A stretch of DNA of 60,079 nt, filler included. It is 9 parts of 9 records of this genome, joined end to end, with 100 filler letters (N's around TTAATTAATTAA, not from the genome) between each part and the next. Parts side by side here need not be neighbours in the genome. Positions count along the whole stretch, not along the records: positions 1 to 5,985 come from SRR31156797_42732; 8 more parts are not named here. The stretch is one strand, 5' to 3'. The translations under genes were made by a program, and so were the position numbers. Position 1 is the first letter of the stretch, and each line of letters opens with the position of its first letter. Below, one piece after another: positions 1 to 6,085 of this stretch. Under the pieces are notes generated by a model, which was given only the letters and a program-made list of their open reading frames with translations, ran no database searches and was not told the DNA's origin.

Positions 1-2
1 AT

Positions 3-590
3 CCTTCCCGAAAGCCAACCGGCGCCGCCCCCAAGCAGGTACAAGGGGGATACGGCCGTACCCGCCGCAAAGAAAAAAGCGGCAAGCCCTCCCCGTATAA
101 AATCTCCGGACGTAACGGCACAGGCCATTATTGCGGTGCAGGGAAGACAGGGAACAAGGCTCATGAGCAGACCCAGCAATGCCGGCTGAAACGGCGTGCG
201 CTTCAACCCGGAAAACTTTTTTTTGCAACAAACAGGGTTTCCGCCGGGACGGCACACATTGATTCCGATCAGGAGAATGAGGATGCCCCCCGTGATCATC
301 ACGGCCCTGGCCGGAAAAAGTTCCTTGCCGACATGGCCCAGAAGTCCGCACAGCAACCCTATGGCCGTATAGCCGGCGATCCTGGAAACGGTGAAAATAA
401 AAGATGCGTTCAATCCGCCTTTAAACGTATTTTTCGTTCCCATGATGTATGTTCCCAGAAGGGGCATACAGGAAAGACTGCAGGTGGTGAGCCCATACAT
501 CAGTCCGACGAGGAATACGCTTGAATAGAGACTGACACCGCCAATATTGAAGATATTGGTAATGTCCTGGGGAATCAGGGATGGAGACAT
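3..590 (-). CDS. UreH/DsbD_2 (TauE/SafE-like) multi-TM membrane protein with conserved Cys motifs; 3' end runs off the window
   Basis: Not in the ORF track; translated by hand from ATG at 590: MSPSLIPQDITNIFNIGGVSLYSSVFLVGLMYGLTTCSLSCMPLLGTYIMG...SRIAGYTAIGLLCGLLG...LLGLLMSLVPCLPCTAIMACAVTSGDFIRGGLAAFFFAAGT. The frame is open to the window edge and starts 18 bp after the activase stop. Confidence 0.75.
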   Translation of the reverse strand, partial: MSPSLIPQDITNIFNIGGVSLYSSVFLVGLMYGLTTCSLSCMPLLGTYIMGTKNTFKGGLNASFIFTVSRIAGYTAIGLLCGLLGHVGKELFPARAVMITGGILILLIGINVCRPGGNPVCCKKKFSGLKRTPFQPALLGLLMSLVPCLPCTAIMACAVTSGDFIRGGLAAFFFAAGTAVSPLYLLGGGAGWLSGR

Positions 591-608
591 GATTTCATTC
601 CAATTCTT

Positions 609-1430
609 TCAGCAGACTTGAGCCAGGGAGGTGTTTGTCGTTTTATTCCAGGTTTCCCTTGCGAGGATCGCGGCGCCGAGGGCCGTGGTTATCTGGGGCG
701 TCGCCGGAACATGAACCTTTATGGCCAGTTCGTCTTCAAGGGCTTTTACAAGTCCCGCATTGAGGGCCGGGCCGCCGTCGAAAACCAGGTTCTCTTCAAG
801 GCCGATTCTCCGGGCCATTCTGGAAATTCTTCTTGCAATGGAAAAATGGGCCCCGGCTATGATATCGCCGGGCTTCTTTTTCCTTGCGATGAGAGAAATG
901 ATTTCACTTTCGGCAAACACGGCGCAGGTGCTGTTGATCTTGAGGGGGGCCTCGGCATTGATCGACAAGGGACCAAGATCTTTCACATCGATTTCCAGAA
1001 TCCGTGTGACCGTCTCGAGGAATCGTCCCGTGCCCGCCGCGCATTTGTCGTTCATGGCGAAATTCCGGGTCACCCCGTGGCCGTCCAGGGAGATGACTTT
1101 ACTGTCCTGTCCCCCGATATTTATGATGGTCCTGACCGGGCCGTCCACATTACGGCATGACCAGACCGTGCCCTTAACGTTGGCGGTAATTTCACTGATC
1201 ACATCATCCGCAAAGCTGATGAGCCTGCGGCCATAGCCCGTGGCCATGACCCGTTTTATCTCTTCCCTCTCGATGCCGGTATCGGAAAGAATTGCCGTGA
1301 CGGCACCTGTGGCCGTTTCCTGGCAGCTGACGCCGGTTGCGGCGACCCTGCTTCCCAGAATTTTATCATCTCCGAAGAGCACGGTTTTGGTGGTTGTAGA
1401 GCCGATATCAATTCCTAAAAAACAATCCAT
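609..1430 (-). CDS. ATP-dependent [4Fe-4S] activase/reductase (HgdC/BcrAD/BadFG ASKHA family; probable DCCP reductase)
   Basis: GIDIGSTTTK, ATGYGR, (N)IGGQDSK, NDKCAAGTG and STCAVFAESE motifs. Confidence 0.93.
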   Translation of the reverse strand: MDCFLGIDIGSTTTKTVLFGDDKILGSRVAATGVSCQETATGAVTAILSDTGIEREEIKRVMATGYGRRLISFADDVISEITANVKGTVWSCRNVDGPVRTIINIGGQDSKVISLDGHGVTRNFAMNDKCAAGTGRFLETVTRILEIDVKDLGPLSINAEAPLKINSTCAVFAESEIISLIARKKKPGDIIAGAHFSIARRISRMARRIGLEENLVFDGGPALNAGLVKALEDELAIKVHVPATPQITTALGAAILARETWNKTTNTSLAQVC

Positions 1431-1432
1431 TG

Positions 1433-2707
1433 TCAGATCCTTCTTCCTTTCAGTGTTTCCATGAACGCCTCCACCCTTGTTCTCAGCTGTTCCGTGTCTT
1501 CCGGGCTGTAGTCGGTTTCGATCTTGAGCTGGGAGATTCCCTTTTTATTCAAATCCGCTTCAATGCCCCGCAACTCCACATCATAGGGGTGGCACCCTTT
1601 GAGCACATGGTGAATGACGCCCTCGATCTTGTAGTCATCGATCATCTGCAGCAATTTATTGCGCCGGTCCGATGTATTTGAAAACACGGGACAGGTACAG
1701 GGCTGGAGATATCTGTCGGCAATGCCGTGGAGCATGTCATCCAGGAGCCGTTCATCAATGGCGACCATATCGTTGAGATAGCGGTTGGATGTGCACAGCT
1801 CGTCACACACCAGGGCCCCCCCGGAGGCTTCGATCAGGCTGGGGACCTTCCAATTTGGAAATACCACGGGAGAGCCTGTCAAAAGAACCCTGGGAGCGCT
1901 TTCCGGGGTTACGGTGACGTTGTTTTCCAGACGAGTCTCCAGGGCATCATTGAGTTTTCCCATGGCTTGGGTCCATTCGGCCACATGATCGTAGAAAAAT
2001 GCGTTGACGACTTCTATGGCGTCCCTTCCGGACAGGGCGTGGGTGTTTGATTTTCTGATATCCCTGAACCGGCAGAATTCCTTTTGGGCGGAGTGGTAAA
2101 TGGCGATGGCTTTTTTGAGCCTGCCGGCCGTTATTCGGTTTCCCGTGAGCCTTTCAAGTTCGACCTTCAGTCTTTCGATCTCCCGTAACCAGAACAGTCT
2201 TGAATTCTCAAGGGTTTTGATTCGTGGAAGGTCCAGCATCATTACCGGAACGAACTCGGACAGGATCTCCCCCATTTTGACCTTCCAGTCGCAGGTGGCG
2301 GGAATGATCACAAGGTCGCAGGCCTGGTAAAAGGGCAGCACGGACACAGAGGAAAAGCCGGTGGCGGCTTTTACCATGGGACAGGCGACCTCGGGAAAAA
2401 ACGTTTCCCCTGCTTCGGCCGCATCCGCGGATCCGGCGCAGAGCCGGACCGGAAAGGCGCCGGCGGCATAAATAAGCTCTTCAGGGACGGACATGCAGTA
2501 GATCCCAACGGTTTTCCTGCCTTTGTTTTTTACAATGCCTTTTTCCTTGTTGTCAGCAAACTGTTTGAAAAAATCGTCAAAATAGGTCATTTCCGGGGGA
2601 CGGGTATGATCCGCTTCAATTTCGTCAAAAATCTCCCTCACCGTCATGGAAAGATGGAGCTTGAATCGTTTTTTAATTCGTTCGCTTCTATCGCTGCTGT
2701 CTAACAT
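1433..2707 (-). CDS. Double-cubane cluster-containing anaerobic reductase (DCCP; 2-hydroxyacyl-CoA dehydratase subunit D family)
   Basis: Single ~420-aa HGD-D-family chain with Cys motifs in both halves: GIYCMSVPEE, RLCAG, ACPMVK, ATCDWK, DELCTSNR, PCTCP, KGCHPY. C-terminal IETDYS...QLRTRVEAFME. Confidence 0.85.
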   Translation of the reverse strand: MLDSSDRSERIKKRFKLHLSMTVREIFDEIEADHTRPPEMTYFDDFFKQFADNKEKGIVKNKGRKTVGIYCMSVPEELIYAAGAFPVRLCAGSADAAEAGETFFPEVACPMVKAATGFSSVSVLPFYQACDLVIIPATCDWKVKMGEILSEFVPVMMLDLPRIKTLENSRLFWLREIERLKVELERLTGNRITAGRLKKAIAIYHSAQKEFCRFRDIRKSNTHALSGRDAIEVVNAFFYDHVAEWTQAMGKLNDALETRLENNVTVTPESAPRVLLTGSPVVFPNWKVPSLIEASGGALVCDELCTSNRYLNDMVAIDERLLDDMLHGIADRYLQPCTCPVFSNTSDRRNKLLQMIDDYKIEGVIHHVLKGCHPYDVELRGIEADLNKKGISQLKIETDYSPEDTEQLRTRVEAFMETLKGRRI

Positions 2708-3702
2708 TTTCTACCTTTCAATTTTGTTAAAGATCCTGATTTGGACATTTTCTCTCCGGCCAGGCTCTTTTGTCGCTTGATAAACCCTTCGGCAGATGAA
2801 GGAAAGACGGTAAGACCGCCCACGGTCGCCCTGAGTGCGTCATTTTCCGGACAAACCTCGATGCAGCGCATGCACAGGATACAGTCCTGGGTAACCATGT
2901 TTACCTTACCGCGCTCCTCCGCGATTTCCATGATATCCATGGGGCAGGCCCTTGCGCAATTGCCGCATCGCGTACATTTCTGCCCCTCTTTCTTCAGGGA
3001 AATCACGCCGATCTTGTCAAACAGGGAAAGCAGCGCCGCCATAGGGCAGTAGGCGCAAAGGTATCGTCTTTTTAAAAATGATGCCGTGAAAAGCAGGGCG
3101 AATATGATCATTGACAAGGAAGTTAAAACCAGCTTGGTCGGGCTTGAAAAATCGATACCGATATTTGAAAAATCCCCGTGGAAAAGCGGTAAAAGCGGTT
3201 TTGCCGGGCATATCTGGCAAAAGGGTACGGCAAGGTCCTCCGGCAGCTTGGAAAGGCCGAAAAATGAATTGCCGATTCCCAGGGGAAGCACGATCATCAA
3301 AACGAGGAGAATGTATTTGACGGAACCGTATGCCGGCCTCGTTACCCAGGCAAACCGGGTAGCGTCGATTTTCAGGGCTTCCCTGAGCATGGTCAAAAGG
3401 TCCTGGATGAACCCGATGGGGCAGGCCCAGCCGCACCACGCCTTGCTGAAAGCGACGGCCCAGAGAAAAAAGGTTCCGAGGTAGATGAGAAAAACGATGC
3501 CGAACCCGCCGATCAGGGTTTCAAACGGAACGGACAAAAACCGCTGGAACGGATAGATAAAACAATATCCCCCCCTGTATTTTGCATAGACACAGGCAAA
3601 TGTCGGGATGGCGTTTCCGATTCCCAGTCCGGCAAGTGCGCCGTATATAAGAAAAATGAAACAGAAGAACTGAACGGCCAGCCTGATCCTATCGACCCGC
3701 AT
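2701..3702 (-). CDS. Membrane 4Fe-4S binding protein (NapH/MauN-like polyferredoxin)
   Basis: Several TM segments, CGWACP, CQICP, CAYCP and two CxxCxxCxxxCP motifs. Start placed at ATG 3702 after an AAAGGAAG RBS (ORF track starts at 3729). Its stop overlaps the DCCP start. Confidence 0.88.
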   Translation of the reverse strand: MRVDRIRLAVQFFCFIFLIYGALAGLGIGNAIPTFACVYAKYRGGYCFIYPFQRFLSVPFETLIGGFGIVFLIYLGTFFLWAVAFSKAWCGWACPIGFIQDLLTMLREALKIDATRFAWVTRPAYGSVKYILLVLMIVLPLGIGNSFFGLSKLPEDLAVPFCQICPAKPLLPLFHGDFSNIGIDFSSPTKLVLTSLSMIIFALLFTASFLKRRYLCAYCPMAALLSLFDKIGVISLKKEGQKCTRCGNCARACPMDIMEIAEERGKVNMVTQDCILCMRCIEVCPENDALRATVGGLTVFPSSAEGFIKRQKSLAGEKMSKSGSLTKLKGRKC

Positions 3703-3761
3703 GGTATCTCTTCCTTTCCGCGGCGCCATTGAAGGCTGTTGTCTTTAAGCCCCCGAGGGCC

Positions 3762-4709
3762 CTATCGTTTTTCATACCATTTCCTCCTCTTTCTTCTTAT
3801 GGCGGCTCCAAAACAGACGGCGGTACCCGTGAACATCATTACCGTGTATCCGGTCTCCTTGCTTTTCCAGTCCAGGGGGGTGGGATGAACCACCAGGAGC
3901 CTGGATGTCCTGAAAACCTCCTTTGTGTATGACTGGCCGTTTAGGGTGCCCTGGCTGTCAATGGTGTATTCCGCGGTCACGAGATATTTACGGGGGTCCT
4001 TGTTGATTTTCTCACCATGGAATGCCTCTTTGATCAGGGTGAAATCGGTTCGTCCGTCTTCAGCGGTCTTGACTGATTTCTTCCAGTCATCATTTGTCGT
4101 CATGGATACGATGCCGCCGGAAACAGGCGTTCCCTTGAAGCGTACCTGGAAAGGAATCCGGTCCCCCGTGTATTTCTTTTGCGGGGAAAAGTCGTTCCCG
4201 TCGTCTTCCGTCATATCAACAAGTTCAAAAACGGGCCTGCCGTTATGCATTCCGGGGTATGAGCTCTTGTCACTCTCAAGTTCTTCGACCTCCTCTCCCG
4301 TGTTCCGAAAAACCTGCCGGGCGAAGAGATGATACCGGACGCCATCCACGACGCCCATGTCACCGTAGGCCGTGAGGGCATACCTGCCTTTTTGAAAAGC
4401 ATCGTCATGGACCCGGCATGAGTCCTCCATTTTTTCAGGCTCAAGCAGGTGAATCGTGTTGTCGGGCATCCTGATCCAGCAAGAGATGTTCTTCAAGGAA
4501 TCAGGGCTGCCGCTTTTGTTGGGAAAGATGCCTGATTTGATGATGAAGTCCGCGGGTTTTGACATGGGTGCCCGTTTTTTGTGCCCGTTGCTCTTCGGCA
4601 TTTTTGATGTTTCCGGGCGTTCGAGCCAGATGAACTCACCTGCCGGAAACGCACATAACGGTTCTGCCAGGAGAGCCAGGCACAGGGCTGCAACTGCAAG
4701 CAGTCTCAC
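3762..4709 (-). CDS. DUF4198-like exported protein with C-terminal membrane anchor
   Basis: Signal peptide; GDRIPFQVRFKGTPV...KTAEDGRTDF DUF4198-like C-domain; hydrophobic helix followed by RRKRRK at the C-terminus; GGAGG RBS before the GTG. Confidence 0.6.
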   Translation of the reverse strand: MRLLAVAALCLALLAEPLCAFPAGEFIWLERPETSKMPKSNGHKKRAPMSKPADFIIKSGIFPNKSGSPDSLKNISCWIRMPDNTIHLLEPEKMEDSCRVHDDAFQKGRYALTAYGDMGVVDGVRYHLFARQVFRNTGEEVEELESDKSSYPGMHNGRPVFELVDMTEDDGNDFSPQKKYTGDRIPFQVRFKGTPVSGGIVSMTTNDDWKKSVKTAEDGRTDFTLIKEAFHGEKINKDPRKYLVTAEYTIDSQGTLNGQSYTKEVFRTSRLLVVHPTPLDWKSKETGYTVMMFTGTAVCFGAAIRRKRRKWYEKR

Positions 4710-4763
4710 TTTTTCCTCCAGTTCCTGTTCTTTAGTTAGTGTTTAATAATTATCAAATGTCGA

Positions 4764-5573
4764 TTATTGGATTTCAAACCGAAGGGTTGCCGTATAATTT
4801 GCTGTAAGGCATTTTTTCTTCAGGTCTTCAGGCGCGGGATTGTTGACAACGGCTTTCAACAGCCAGGGACCGTAATGGAGAAGGCGGATTTCAGCAACAC
4901 CGTTCGAGTCGGTGGTTGTCGTAAACGCATAATCCCCCTTGGATGAAAAGCCGTCGTATGTCCCGAAAACATTGATGTAGGGGGCGGGTTTTCCCTTGTG
5001 CAGGACCTTCACTTTAAGGCGGTCTCCCTGGCTGAGCTTGAACGGATTATCAAGGGGGATGATTTCAATGTTGTGACCCGCAGGCCGGGAGTAATCACTT
5101 GTGCCGGAATCTCCCGTGGAAATCAGGGCCTTGGTGCATTGTTCATAGTACATGCTGAGGACGATGTTCTCAAGGCCCTCCATGGATCCCATCTTGTGGT
5201 GGATTTTATCATTTTTCATATACATGGTATAGATACCGGGGGTTGTGGTTGCGGCAACGGTGTAAGTTCCTTGTTTCTTCATGCGGAGGGAAGTTGTGAG
5301 GTAGCCGCCTTCACCGGGGGTGAGATCTTCCGCCTGGCCTTCAGGTCCCATGAGTTTGAATTCGGTCAACATCTCTTTGGGCAAAAAGTCCTGAACGGGA
5401 AATCGGTGTCCAAAACCGAAGTATACTTTTGAATAGGCCCCCATTTTTTTGCTGAACTTGGGAATGTGATTCGTTGCATTGAGAGACAGCATATGGCTGA
5501 AAGAGGCCTGGGGCAGGACCAGCATGAATGTAATGATAATACCTAGTGTTGATTTGAAAAGTAGTTTTCTCAT
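4764..5573 (-). CDS. DUF4198 (NikK-like periplasmic metal-uptake accessory) protein
   Basis: Signal peptide ending ASFS-H (His at the mature N-terminus), FGFGHRFP, EIIPLDNP...GDRLKVKVLHKGKP, TDSNGVAEI...GPWLL. Confidence 0.8.
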   Translation of the reverse strand: MRKLLFKSTLGIIITFMLVLPQASFSHMLSLNATNHIPKFSKKMGAYSKVYFGFGHRFPVQDFLPKEMLTEFKLMGPEGQAEDLTPGEGGYLTTSLRMKKQGTYTVAATTTPGIYTMYMKNDKIHHKMGSMEGLENIVLSMYYEQCTKALISTGDSGTSDYSRPAGHNIEIIPLDNPFKLSQGDRLKVKVLHKGKPAPYINVFGTYDGFSSKGDYAFTTTTDSNGVAEIRLLHYGPWLLKAVVNNPAPEDLKKKCLTANYTATLRFEIQ

Positions 5574-5622
5574 CTGAAGTTTCCTTTTCTGTGTTGTAAA
5601 GGGTTTCTACAAGCGCAACAAT

Positions 5623-5685
5623 ATTAGCTACAATAAAATTGCTTGATTGATTGAGCTAATTACGGCATGCCAAACATTTTGTCAA
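5623..5685 (-). promoter_or_regulatory. Putative promoter and inverted-repeat operator of the DUF4198-DCCP operon
   Basis: TTGACA on the minus strand at 5680-5685. Inverted repeat ATTAGCT(A)CAAT (5623-5634) / ATTGAGCTAAT (5650-5660) overlaps the expected -10 region. Confidence 0.4.
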
Positions 5686-5758
5686 TATATTATTTTTTCT
5701 AACACAACCAAATGATGAGGCCGGTCTCAGTCTACCATCCGTATAGACAGAGGGATGG

Positions 5759-5924
5759 CATGCAGACGATGACAAGCGATTACGTGATTGTGGGGTCCGG
5801 TCCCGGCGGTGCTACGGAGGCAAGGGATCTTGCCAGGGCAGGCAAAGAGGTGATTGGCCTTGAAAAGGGACAGCGTCACAAGCTCTCCAGGAGCAAACTC
5901 AAGGCCTATGGCATCTACGACTAA
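5759..5924 (+). pseudogene. Truncated FAD-dependent (GMC-type) oxidoreductase, N-terminal Rossmann fragment
   Basis: DYVIVGSGPGGA...LARAGKEVIGLEKG, then a stop after ~55 aa. Confidence 0.65.
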
Positions 5925-5928
5925 TTTT

Positions 5929-5983
5929 ACCATGAAGGACATGAAGTTATAGACGCTTCATGTCCTTCATGTTCTTCATGGTG
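5929..5983. repeat. Palindromic REP-like element built from CATGAAG/CTTCATG units
   Basis: Perfect 16-bp inverted repeat CATGAAGGACATGAAG (5931-5946) / CTTCATGTCCTTCATG (5956-5971), plus an extra TTCTTCATG unit at the contig end. Confidence 0.7.
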
Positions 5984-5985
5984 GT

Positions 5986-6085
5986 NNNNNNNNNNNNNNN
6001 NNNNNNNNNNNNNNNNNNNNNNNNNNNNNTTAATTAATTAANNNNNNNNNNNNNNNNNNNNNNNNNNNNNNNNNNNNNNNNNNNN
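5986..6085. other. Artificial contig spacer
   Basis: N44-TTAATTAATTAA-N44, with stops in all six frames. Identical spacers at 12091, 21334, 27424, 32605, 38386, 47950 and 54092. Confidence 0.99.

Follow-up and report, generated by a model that had tools for sequence, protein, structure and literature searches.

The window, the whole 60,079-nt stretch of DNA analysed here, opens with an operon of six minus-strand open reading frames (ORFs; ORF calls, 3-5573) that joins DCCP, a double-cubane cluster protein, and its ATPase activator, DCCP-R, to a NapH-like membrane polyferredoxin, two probable periplasmic relatives of DUF4198 proteins (DUF4198a and X) and a membrane protein of the DsbD_2 family. 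Comparison with related loci showed that X, the NapH-like protein, DCCP and DCCP-R constitute a conserved unit that has spread horizontally across distant phyla. The recurrent core is X-NapH-DCCP-DCCP-R, and DsbD_2 and the canonical DUF4198 protein with its N-terminal His are frequent but dispensable accessories. We tentatively read the operon as an acquisition module that spans the envelope, is centred on an ATP-driven reductase of low potential and serves the reductive uptake of a metal or metallocofactor, a reading that we would put slightly short of an even chance; within it, metal and substrate, as well as the direction in which electrons flow, are inferred. An earlier note on this DNA had named six co-oriented genes of these families, with the NapH-like and DCCP genes overlapping at 2701-2707 and a 2-nt gap between DCCP and DCCP-R (1431-1432), and this layout, including the 7-nt overlap, was borne out by ORF calls and Pfam/NCBIfam searches.

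In a genome survey using one genome per species, 553 relatives were found, the best 80 loci were kept, and the six window proteins were placed in them by tblastn. The window's own clade, clade A, comprises 13 genome loci at 55-69% DCCP identity (L001-8, L019-23), and in 13/13 of them the NapH-like, DCCP and DCCP-R genes stand in the same order. X and DsbD_2 were each detected in 12 of the 13, the gaps falling in L019 and L022, both at contig ends. According to organism titles and tree labels, the carriers belong to Thermodesulfobacteriota, Lentisphaerota and Pseudomonadota, the groups being Desulfovibrionales, Syntrophaceae, Lentisphaerae, Rhodospirillales, Sedimenticolaceae, Rhodomicrobiaceae and Hyphomicrobiales. 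Scanning metagenomes with DCCP as query yielded 12 loci, 11 of them at 61-72% identity; all 11 carry X-NapH-DCCP, ten continue with DCCP-R and DsbD_2, and the remaining one (L100) ends after DCCP. Wherever the contig permits, the five genes from X to DsbD_2 stay together in this clade, whose range covers four phyla. The metagenome scan with X as query found no relative. Among 401 sampled genomes of one phylum, nine had a match to X, and a NapH-like gene adjoins X in eight of these. In other genomes, too, the window's DCCP clade is thus accompanied by DUF4198-like, polyferredoxin and DsbD_2 genes, a co-occurrence on which the earlier note had staked its proposal.

Across the wider family, the DCCP-R gene adjoins DCCP in 72 loci, and a NapH-like gene lies directly upstream of DCCP in 47 of the 79 loci with a near-full DCCP match. 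In 71 loci the upstream DNA extends over 1.2 kb or more, and among these the NapH-like gene is adjacent in 46 and not adjacent in 25. The distribution of this coupling follows the phylogeny. A quick maximum-likelihood tree of DCCP falls into two halves, one with 46 NapH-coupled rows out of 50 and the other with 25 uncoupled rows out of 30, and the label changes twice on the tree as compared to 20.9 times in shuffles, with 0/500 shuffles reaching so low a value. The uncoupled half is composed of Bacillota, Chloroflexota and Actinomycetota, with a few archaea. Its coupled counterpart consists of clade A and its sister clade B (14 and 15 rows, respectively, each with support 100; clade B at 40-46% identity), a Thermoplasmatota clade and a mixed clade, clade B being made up mainly of Desulfobacterales and Syntrophales plus one planctomycete and one spirochaete. 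Carriers that are cultivable or have a complete genome include Lentisphaerae bacterium WC36 (L002), delta proteobacterium NaphS2 (L012) and, among the homologues, Desulfosarcina ovata.

The archaeal version of the core differs in its outer components. In Thermoplasmatota (L038-L049, L053, L060), the NapH-like and DCCP genes are followed by two DCCP-R paralogues and preceded by two to four genes for secreted beta-propeller proteins (PQQ_2, WD40, FG-GAP), the last of which has a C-terminal transmembrane (TM) helix. The recurring order of an anchored extracytoplasmic protein, NapH-like protein, DCCP and DCCP-R favours an outward-directed Fe-S chain. A NosD-like protein is encoded downstream of the archaeal core in L042. 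In one locus each of Methanosarcinales (L026), Iainarchaeum (L027) and Woesearchaeota (L051), NapH-DCCP has a DsbD_2 gene and another NapH-like paralogue some kb upstream of it, and L026 and L051 have a tandem pair of DCCP paralogues.

At the level of sequence, the operon gene at 1433-2707 is confirmed as DCCP. Its 424-residue product scored 382.1 bits against the NCBIfam model NF040772 (double_cubane, cutoff 350) and 344 bits against Pfam HGD-D, and matched the PDB entries 7yyl and 6eno at E ~1e-76. Because this alignment starts at residue 34, the protein has an N-terminal extension, and its length is that of class I. The characteristic 7-Cys motif combines the six ligands of the [8Fe-9S] cluster with a nearby seventh Cys (Cys94 of DCCP_Ch), as described in passages of PMC7317905. 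In the window protein the motif comprises C71, C90, C109, C139, C305, C339 and C372, which all align to Cys residues of 6ENO/7YYL and are invariant among 27 homologues. The ligands hence align with DCCP, where a mismatch had been named in the earlier note as grounds for dropping the assignment; of the eight Cys that it had listed, seven fall on the published motif, and C337 is an extra, not invariant Cys. The neighbouring gene at 609-1430 encodes the 273-residue DCCP-R, by family an ASKHA 'archerase' ATPase that should reduce DCCP. It scored 268.6 bits against TIGR00241 (cutoff 125.4) and 196.9 bits against BcrAD_BadFG, and it keeps both cluster-Cys contexts (NDKC130AAG and STC169AVF). In the published pair, as passages of PMC9351452 have it, DCCP-R docks on DCCP at its C-terminal helix, the D400-D405 loop and N111 beside the Cys equivalent to C109.

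The third component of the core is the NapH-like polyferredoxin (2701-3729, 342 aa), which combines Fer4_5 with a dicluster ferredoxin domain. Its scores against the NapH/MauN model TIGR02163 (82.5 bits vs 213.05) and NF007013 (82 bits vs 234) stay below both cutoffs, and it shares 28% identity with E. coli NapH. Hydropathy predicts four TM helices, with two cytoplasmic CXnCP motifs and two [4Fe-4S] motifs, and the corresponding residues (C99x3C103P, C225x2C228P, C252/255/258/262 and C283/286/289/293) align with the E. coli protein. Of the 16 Cys of the NapH-like protein, eight make up the two ferredoxin motifs, and conservation extends to the complete set: 15 positions are kept in 53/53 DCCP-adjacent homologues, archaeal ones included, and C46 is kept in 52/53. 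Four of them, C46, C56, C171 and C174, lie on two predicted periplasmic loops, and at these positions Cys is absent from E. coli NapH. An N-in four-helix topology, which would place both Cys loops in the periplasm, is suggested by the basic N-terminus and the loop charges. Neither napG/napA nor mau partner genes were present on the contig or in the flanks of the related loci scanned. The AlphaFold2 (AF2) model is confident, with a predicted local distance difference test (pLDDT) score of 87.

Structure prediction also linked the NapH-like protein to DCCP. Co-folding of the two proteins with family alignments gave a score of 0.67, whereas the best of three controls reached 0.00, so that the co-fold proposed in the earlier note came out positive with its controls passed. 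In the calibration of the tool, the mark was reached by 116/157 solved complexes and by 2/215 mismatched pairs, counts that are only approximate here, since our own alignments were used. The runs shared at least 66% of contacts, and the partner pLDDT was at least 85. Confident contacts involve residues 117-123, 250-261 (the first [4Fe-4S] motif), 292-294 and 313-325 of the NapH-like protein and residues 198-212, 313-336 (just before the ligand C339) and 347-357 of DCCP. The co-fold supports, and does not show, that DCCP sits on the ferredoxin domain of the NapH-like protein. The predicted face on DCCP differs from the docking site of DCCP-R given in passages of PMC9351452. Because that site lies on the other face, near the other cubane, the NapH-like protein and DCCP-R could bind DCCP simultaneously and form a wire. 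Passages of the same paper also report that the double-cubane cluster resists reduction by dithionite or Ti(III) citrate; as even these reductants fail, electrons should run from DCCP to the NapH-like protein and not in reverse.

On the periplasmic side, the first gene of the operon (4764-5573, 269 aa) encodes DUF4198a, by family a secreted metal-binding DUF4198 protein of the NikK/Zcp type, which scored 144.8 bits against Pfam PF10670 (cutoff 34). H27 is the first residue after its signal peptide and is invariant in 8/8 orthologues, in line with the mature N-terminal His that had been noticed earlier. DUF4198 proteins bind Ni or Zn through such an N-terminal His (passages of PMC12537917; PDB titles). 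The DUF4198a family profile matches N. gonorrhoeae Zcp at E 4.5e-32, and the Zcp His ligands mutated in 9mhk, a Zcp triple mutant, are not matched by His in the DUF4198a alignment. The second protein, X (DUF4198b; 3762-4709, 315 aa), reached 20.5 bits against Pfam DUF4198, under the cutoff of 34; hhalign nevertheless related it to the DUF4198a family with 98.6% probability (E 7.7e-16). Its AF2 model (pLDDT 81.6) matched Zcp 9mhn (E 6.8e-11) and the Ni-bound Ideonella DUF4198 protein 9gcb as top Foldseek hits in the PDB. As the protein scores below the Pfam cutoff and lacks the N-terminal His, yet agrees in predicted fold and profile, we consider X a divergent DUF4198 relative and not a typical member. 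The X proteins of clades A and B align over their full length in a 14-sequence alignment. All begin with a signal peptide and have a W-(W/L)-E motif where the N-terminal His stands in DUF4198 proteins; a beta-sandwich of the DUF4198 type and a C-terminal helix with basic residues behind it complete the shared features, the helix and basic residues corresponding in the window X to a membrane anchor and RRKRR. The family is small: a search of 1.84 billion gave 77 representatives at E 1e-30, rising to 207 at E 1e-10, and the nearest Atlas clusters are unnamed. In three proteobacterial X proteins (L006:7901-9001, L007:7857-9002, L021:7777-8964), Met-rich inserts (MMMMM; MGMG...MRMG) separate the WLE motif from the DUF4198 core, the window X having a short version only. 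Such inserts could hint at a soft metal such as Cu(I).

The operon ends with DsbD_2, a CcdA/UreH-like membrane protein (3-590) of which 196 aa are encoded in the window; its 3' end lies past the window start, with ~35-40 residues missing. It scored 58.1 bits against PF13386 (cutoff 24.9). C37, C41 and P43 (CxxxCxP, TM1) and P147, C148 and P150 (PCxP, TM4) are invariant in 23/23 sequences, and C121 is nearly so. The two motifs singled out in the earlier note, CSLSC (C37/C41) and PCLPC (C148/C151), are both present, although relatives do not conserve the second Cys of PCLPC, C151. Pfam showed no thioredoxin-like gene in the operon. At several clade-A loci, a gene for a small secreted protein of ~150-170 aa without Pfam family follows 3' of DsbD_2 (L001:12738-13181, L020:8815-9264, L021:12855-13373, L023:6478-6945). 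The three alphaproteobacterial copies align well and the L001 copy weakly, at 23-25% identity; ORFs of 158-169 aa without family occupy the corresponding place in L097, L098, L099 and L102.

Pfam scans of the flanks revealed a TonB-dependent receptor gene adjoining the module in 11/13 clade-A genome loci, 7/12 clade-B loci and 5/5 long metagenome loci. The survey of neighbours suggested in the earlier note thus recovered the expected TonB receptors; of the regulators it had named, no NikR was seen, and a Fur gene was found near one locus only (L005). ExbB/ExbD/TonB genes lie downstream of DsbD_2 in L008, L020, L021 and L023, and a receptor together with a canonical DUF4198 protein is encoded 3' of DsbD_2 in L001 and L096-98. 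In the nearest relatives of the window (L001, L097, L099, L102), a gene for an extracytoplasmic function (ECF) sigma factor stands directly upstream of X, accompanied in L102 by a zf-HC2 anti-sigma gene. Clade A has further neighbours in FeoB, ZIP and Fur (L003/L005), two-component genes upstream of the module (L006, L021), DUF2946 (L020, L021) and HlyD/MacB or resistance-nodulation-division (RND) efflux genes (near L001, L004 and L019).

The flanks of clade B point to cobalt and cobamides. Its neighbours include CobN with a tetrapyrrole methylase (L012), FecCD/ABC with BtuR (L014), CbiK (L017), ChlI/ChlD-like proteins with CbiZ and BtuR (L018), CbiX (L029), CbiB (L030), CbiZ with methylmalonyl-CoA mutase (L034) and CbiM/CbiQ (L009). 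Furthermore, in 8/11 clade-B loci scanned (L012, L014, L017, L018, L030, L031, L033, L034; not found in L009, L010, L013), Rfam identified a cobalamin riboswitch that immediately precedes the receptor or X gene on the same strand as the operon. Clade B is therefore linked directly to the supply of cobalt or cobamides, and the window's clade by homology only. One metagenome locus (L101, 61% DCCP identity) has five TonB-receptor ORFs and three TP_methylase genes around the module, yet is without a cobalamin riboswitch.

Taken together, we propose the following scheme. A TonB-dependent receptor would carry a metal complex or metallocofactor into the periplasm, where membrane-anchored X would keep the cargo beside the NapH-like protein. 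In the cytoplasm, DCCP-R would spend ATP on charging DCCP's double-cubane cluster with electrons of very low potential, and DCCP, seated on the ferredoxin domain of the NapH-like protein, would feed them into its Fe-S chain, toward the family-specific four-Cys site on the periplasmic side. Upon reduction the cargo would be freed, the metal being caught by the N-terminal-His DUF4198 protein and entering via the Cys-lined DsbD_2 permease. For the sister clade, the most likely cargo is cobalt or a corrinoid. The earlier note had likewise envisaged an envelope-spanning module for reductive acquisition of a metal or metallocofactor. The riboswitches of the sister clade tie the module to the metallocofactor economy, as that proposal would have it, and DsbD_2 and the canonical DUF4198 protein, which it had counted as parts of the system, proved to lie outside the recurrent core; the function itself we infer. 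A bolder version, possible but in our view rather improbable, is that DCCP in this lineage is not a substrate-reducing enzyme but an ATP-powered electron injector, whose export of electrons at very low potential, towards the periplasm or, in archaea, the cell surface, would serve metal or corrinoid reduction. The wire would then run from DCCP-R through the first and second cubane to the [4Fe-4S] clusters of the NapH-like protein and on to the outer-face four-Cys site. In bacteria, it might act with TonB receptors and the anchored DUF4198-like protein to free cobalt or another metal reductively from inert complexes, or to reduce corrinoids outside the cytoplasm; in Thermoplasmatota, the core would be coupled to the surface beta-propeller proteins and serve a different cargo.

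Several observations weigh against the acquisition scheme. There is no TonB receptor on the window's own contig; since that contig ends ~420 nt upstream of the operon, missing upstream genes reflect the contig break and are not a finding. Typing of 14 TonB receptors from related loci with NCBIfam gave none above a curated cutoff, the best being BtuB-type matches in L014 and L030 (327-330 bits vs 599.7). As the receptors fit no curated class, they do not identify the cargo. Cobalamin riboswitches were found by Rfam in 0/24 clade-A loci and not in the window. DsbD_2 is missing from one clade-B subclade (L018, L030, L031, L033, L034) and from most archaeal loci, and canonical DUF4198 proteins occur in some loci only. 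None of the proteins facing the periplasm carries a recognisable redox cofactor, and reducing ordinary Ni, Co, Cu or Zn ions does not require so low a potential. The membrane part of the NapH-like protein has no PDB counterpart by sequence profile or Foldseek; because no NapH-type membrane domain has been solved, no route across the membrane is established. Moreover, the DCCP residues at the predicted interface are not better conserved in the coupled group (mean entropy 2.04 vs 1.60 elsewhere, one-sided p 0.99), and only P336, D313, E319 and R351 are specific to it. Finally, the only published context for DCCP that we found is a bioinformatic link of free-standing DCCPs from Firmicutes and Actinobacteria to selenium metabolism (PMC5322559 Table 1; passages of PMC10418091). 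A selenium role was considered for the present loci and rejected, no sel, yedE or yedF gene being seen in any flank scanned.

The main rival to this scheme keeps the chemistry in the cytoplasm. Here, the NapH-like protein would serve as membrane electron source or anchor for DCCP-R/DCCP, DCCP would reduce a small substrate at its double-cubane cluster inside the cell, and the TonB receptor, the DUF4198 proteins and DsbD_2 would only import that substrate, be it a metal, a metalloid or another small molecule. In favour of it, passages of PMC7317905 and PMC9351452 describe in vitro reduction of acetylene, azide and hydrazine by DCCP, as well as narrow channels for substrate, and the window DCCP carries the N-terminal extension typical of that class. 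Canonical NapH is likewise regarded as the quinol-side entry of electrons (passages of the Meheust preprint), and in most loci the DsbD_2 gene stands directly 3' of DCCP-R. However, a ferredoxin domain docked on DCCP near C339, as the co-fold predicts, would be more sensible as an acceptor, and an electron donor should rather dock on DCCP-R. Cytoplasmic reduction also leaves the four extra outer-loop Cys without a role, and it sits poorly with archaea and other phyla, in which another membrane-anchored extracytoplasmic protein always precedes NapH and an importer is lacking. We consider this explanation unlikely, albeit the strongest of the competitors.

A role in envelope stress or in metal or metalloid resistance, for example the reductive removal of toxic periplasmic species under ECF sigma or two-component control, would turn the module from nutrient uptake to detoxification. 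The regulatory genes upstream of X in the window's nearest relatives, the two-component genes of L006 and L021 and the efflux genes near L001, L004 and L019 could be read in this way. ECF sigma factors also control TonB-dependent uptake, however, and TonB-dependent receptors with ExbBD/TonB are import machinery; repression through a cobalamin riboswitch, as in clade B, is what marks a module devoted to supply. We thus regard detoxification as less likely than cytoplasmic chemistry, and indeed as very doubtful. That an ordinary DCCP/DCCP-R pair came by accident to have an uptake cassette of the Ni/Co type on one side and unrelated membrane proteins on the other is excluded, for although 25/71 loci with enough upstream DNA lack an adjacent NapH-like gene, gene order is kept in 24 clade-A loci from distant phyla, the coupling label changes less often on the tree than in any shuffle, X adjoins NapH in nearly all genomes that have it, and the NapH-like and DCCP genes of the window overlap.

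The physiological role of DCCP was called unknown in passages of papers from 2020 and 2022 (PMC7317905, PMC9351452), and in our literature searches no paper came up that connects DCCP to a membrane polyferredoxin, to TonB receptors, to DUF4198 or to riboswitches. The component families are known; the combined system is undescribed in the literature searched. The operon family therefore offers a testable context for DCCP, with a membrane partner predicted to bind it, periplasmic partners, TonB receptors and, in the sister clade, cobalamin riboswitches. If export of electrons were true, the module would be the first known machine to deliver ATP-energised, very low-potential electrons to the periplasm or, in archaea, the cell surface. 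It would represent a new way of performing very low-potential chemistry outside the cytoplasm and would add a step to cobalt and cobamide acquisition in anoxic habitats.

With respect to its assembly, the window consists of at least nine short contigs chained by N...TTAATTAATTAA...N linkers at 6030, 12135, 21378, 27468, 32649, 38430, 47994 and 54136, so that gene order across these eight linkers is artificial. As the first linker, at 6030, begins near 5991, genuine operon context is confined to window positions 1 to ~5990. The region between the operon and the contig end (5574-5990), by our reading of the sequence, contains a divergent ORF and presumably the promoter. This ORF (5712-5924, plus strand, 70 aa), perhaps part of a broken gene, has a GxGxxG-type N-terminus (VIVGSGPGG) and matched nothing in Pfam at E 1e-8; a hairpin with a 17-bp stem lies 3' of it (5931-5971). 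Promoter-like and terminator-like sites in 1-6030 did not exceed chance (promoter-like: 7 found vs 4.6 +/- 2.8 expected), and an Rfam scan of the window found no family. On another contig (41988-45029, minus strand), unrelated to the operon, genes for an ArsP-type permease, a chromate transporter and a metallo-beta-lactamase-fold protein stand in a row.

Among known systems, the closest to the cytoplasmic half of the operon is the DCCP/DCCP-R pair of Carboxydothermus hydrogenoformans (6ENO, 7YYL), which belongs to the same family, has the same 7-Cys motif and comes with an adjacent archerase-type ATPase. In passages of PMC7317905 and PMC9351452, that pair is treated as a soluble two-component system without known physiological role, and the words 'membrane' and 'polyferredoxin' have no occurrence in PMC9351452; the window DCCP, by comparison, falls into the separate, NapH-coupled half of the tree. 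The HGD-D fold and archerase activator are also shared with 2-hydroxyacyl-CoA (coenzyme A) dehydratases and class I benzoyl-CoA reductases, from which the window differs in having a single HGD-D gene, no CoA transferase on the contig and the 7-Cys instead of a 3-Cys motif (passages of PMC7317905). Given this gene content and DCCP scores far under the cutoffs for HadC (129.9 bits vs 700) and BzdN (91.3 bits vs 453.8), amino-acid fermentation, which the earlier note had already set aside, and aromatic reduction were rejected. The membrane component resembles polyferredoxins of the NapH/NosR/PceC type in its four TM helices, two cytoplasmic CXnCP and two [4Fe-4S] motifs. It departs from them in scoring below the NapH/MauN cutoff, in coming without NapG/NapA or an FMN-binding (flavin mononucleotide) domain, in four extra invariant outer-loop Cys and in its predicted cytoplasmic partner, the ATP-driven DCCP. 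NapH-like systems are described in passages of the preprint by Meheust et al. as modular links from the cell's electrons to extracytosolic redox partners, and the same passages count 1,500 PepSY clusters that carry DUF4198. The periplasmic half of the operon is alike to these clusters of TonB receptors, DUF4198 proteins and PepSY-like reductases, to NikK of the Ni/Co energy-coupling factor transporters and to Zcp in placing a secreted DUF4198 protein near a TonB receptor and a membrane redox protein. X differs from the typical DUF4198 proteins of these systems in that it has lost the N-terminal His and gained a membrane anchor, and, in place of a PepSY/flavin protein, the membrane redox component here is an Fe-S protein of the NapH type that would be fed by an ATPase-driven reductase.

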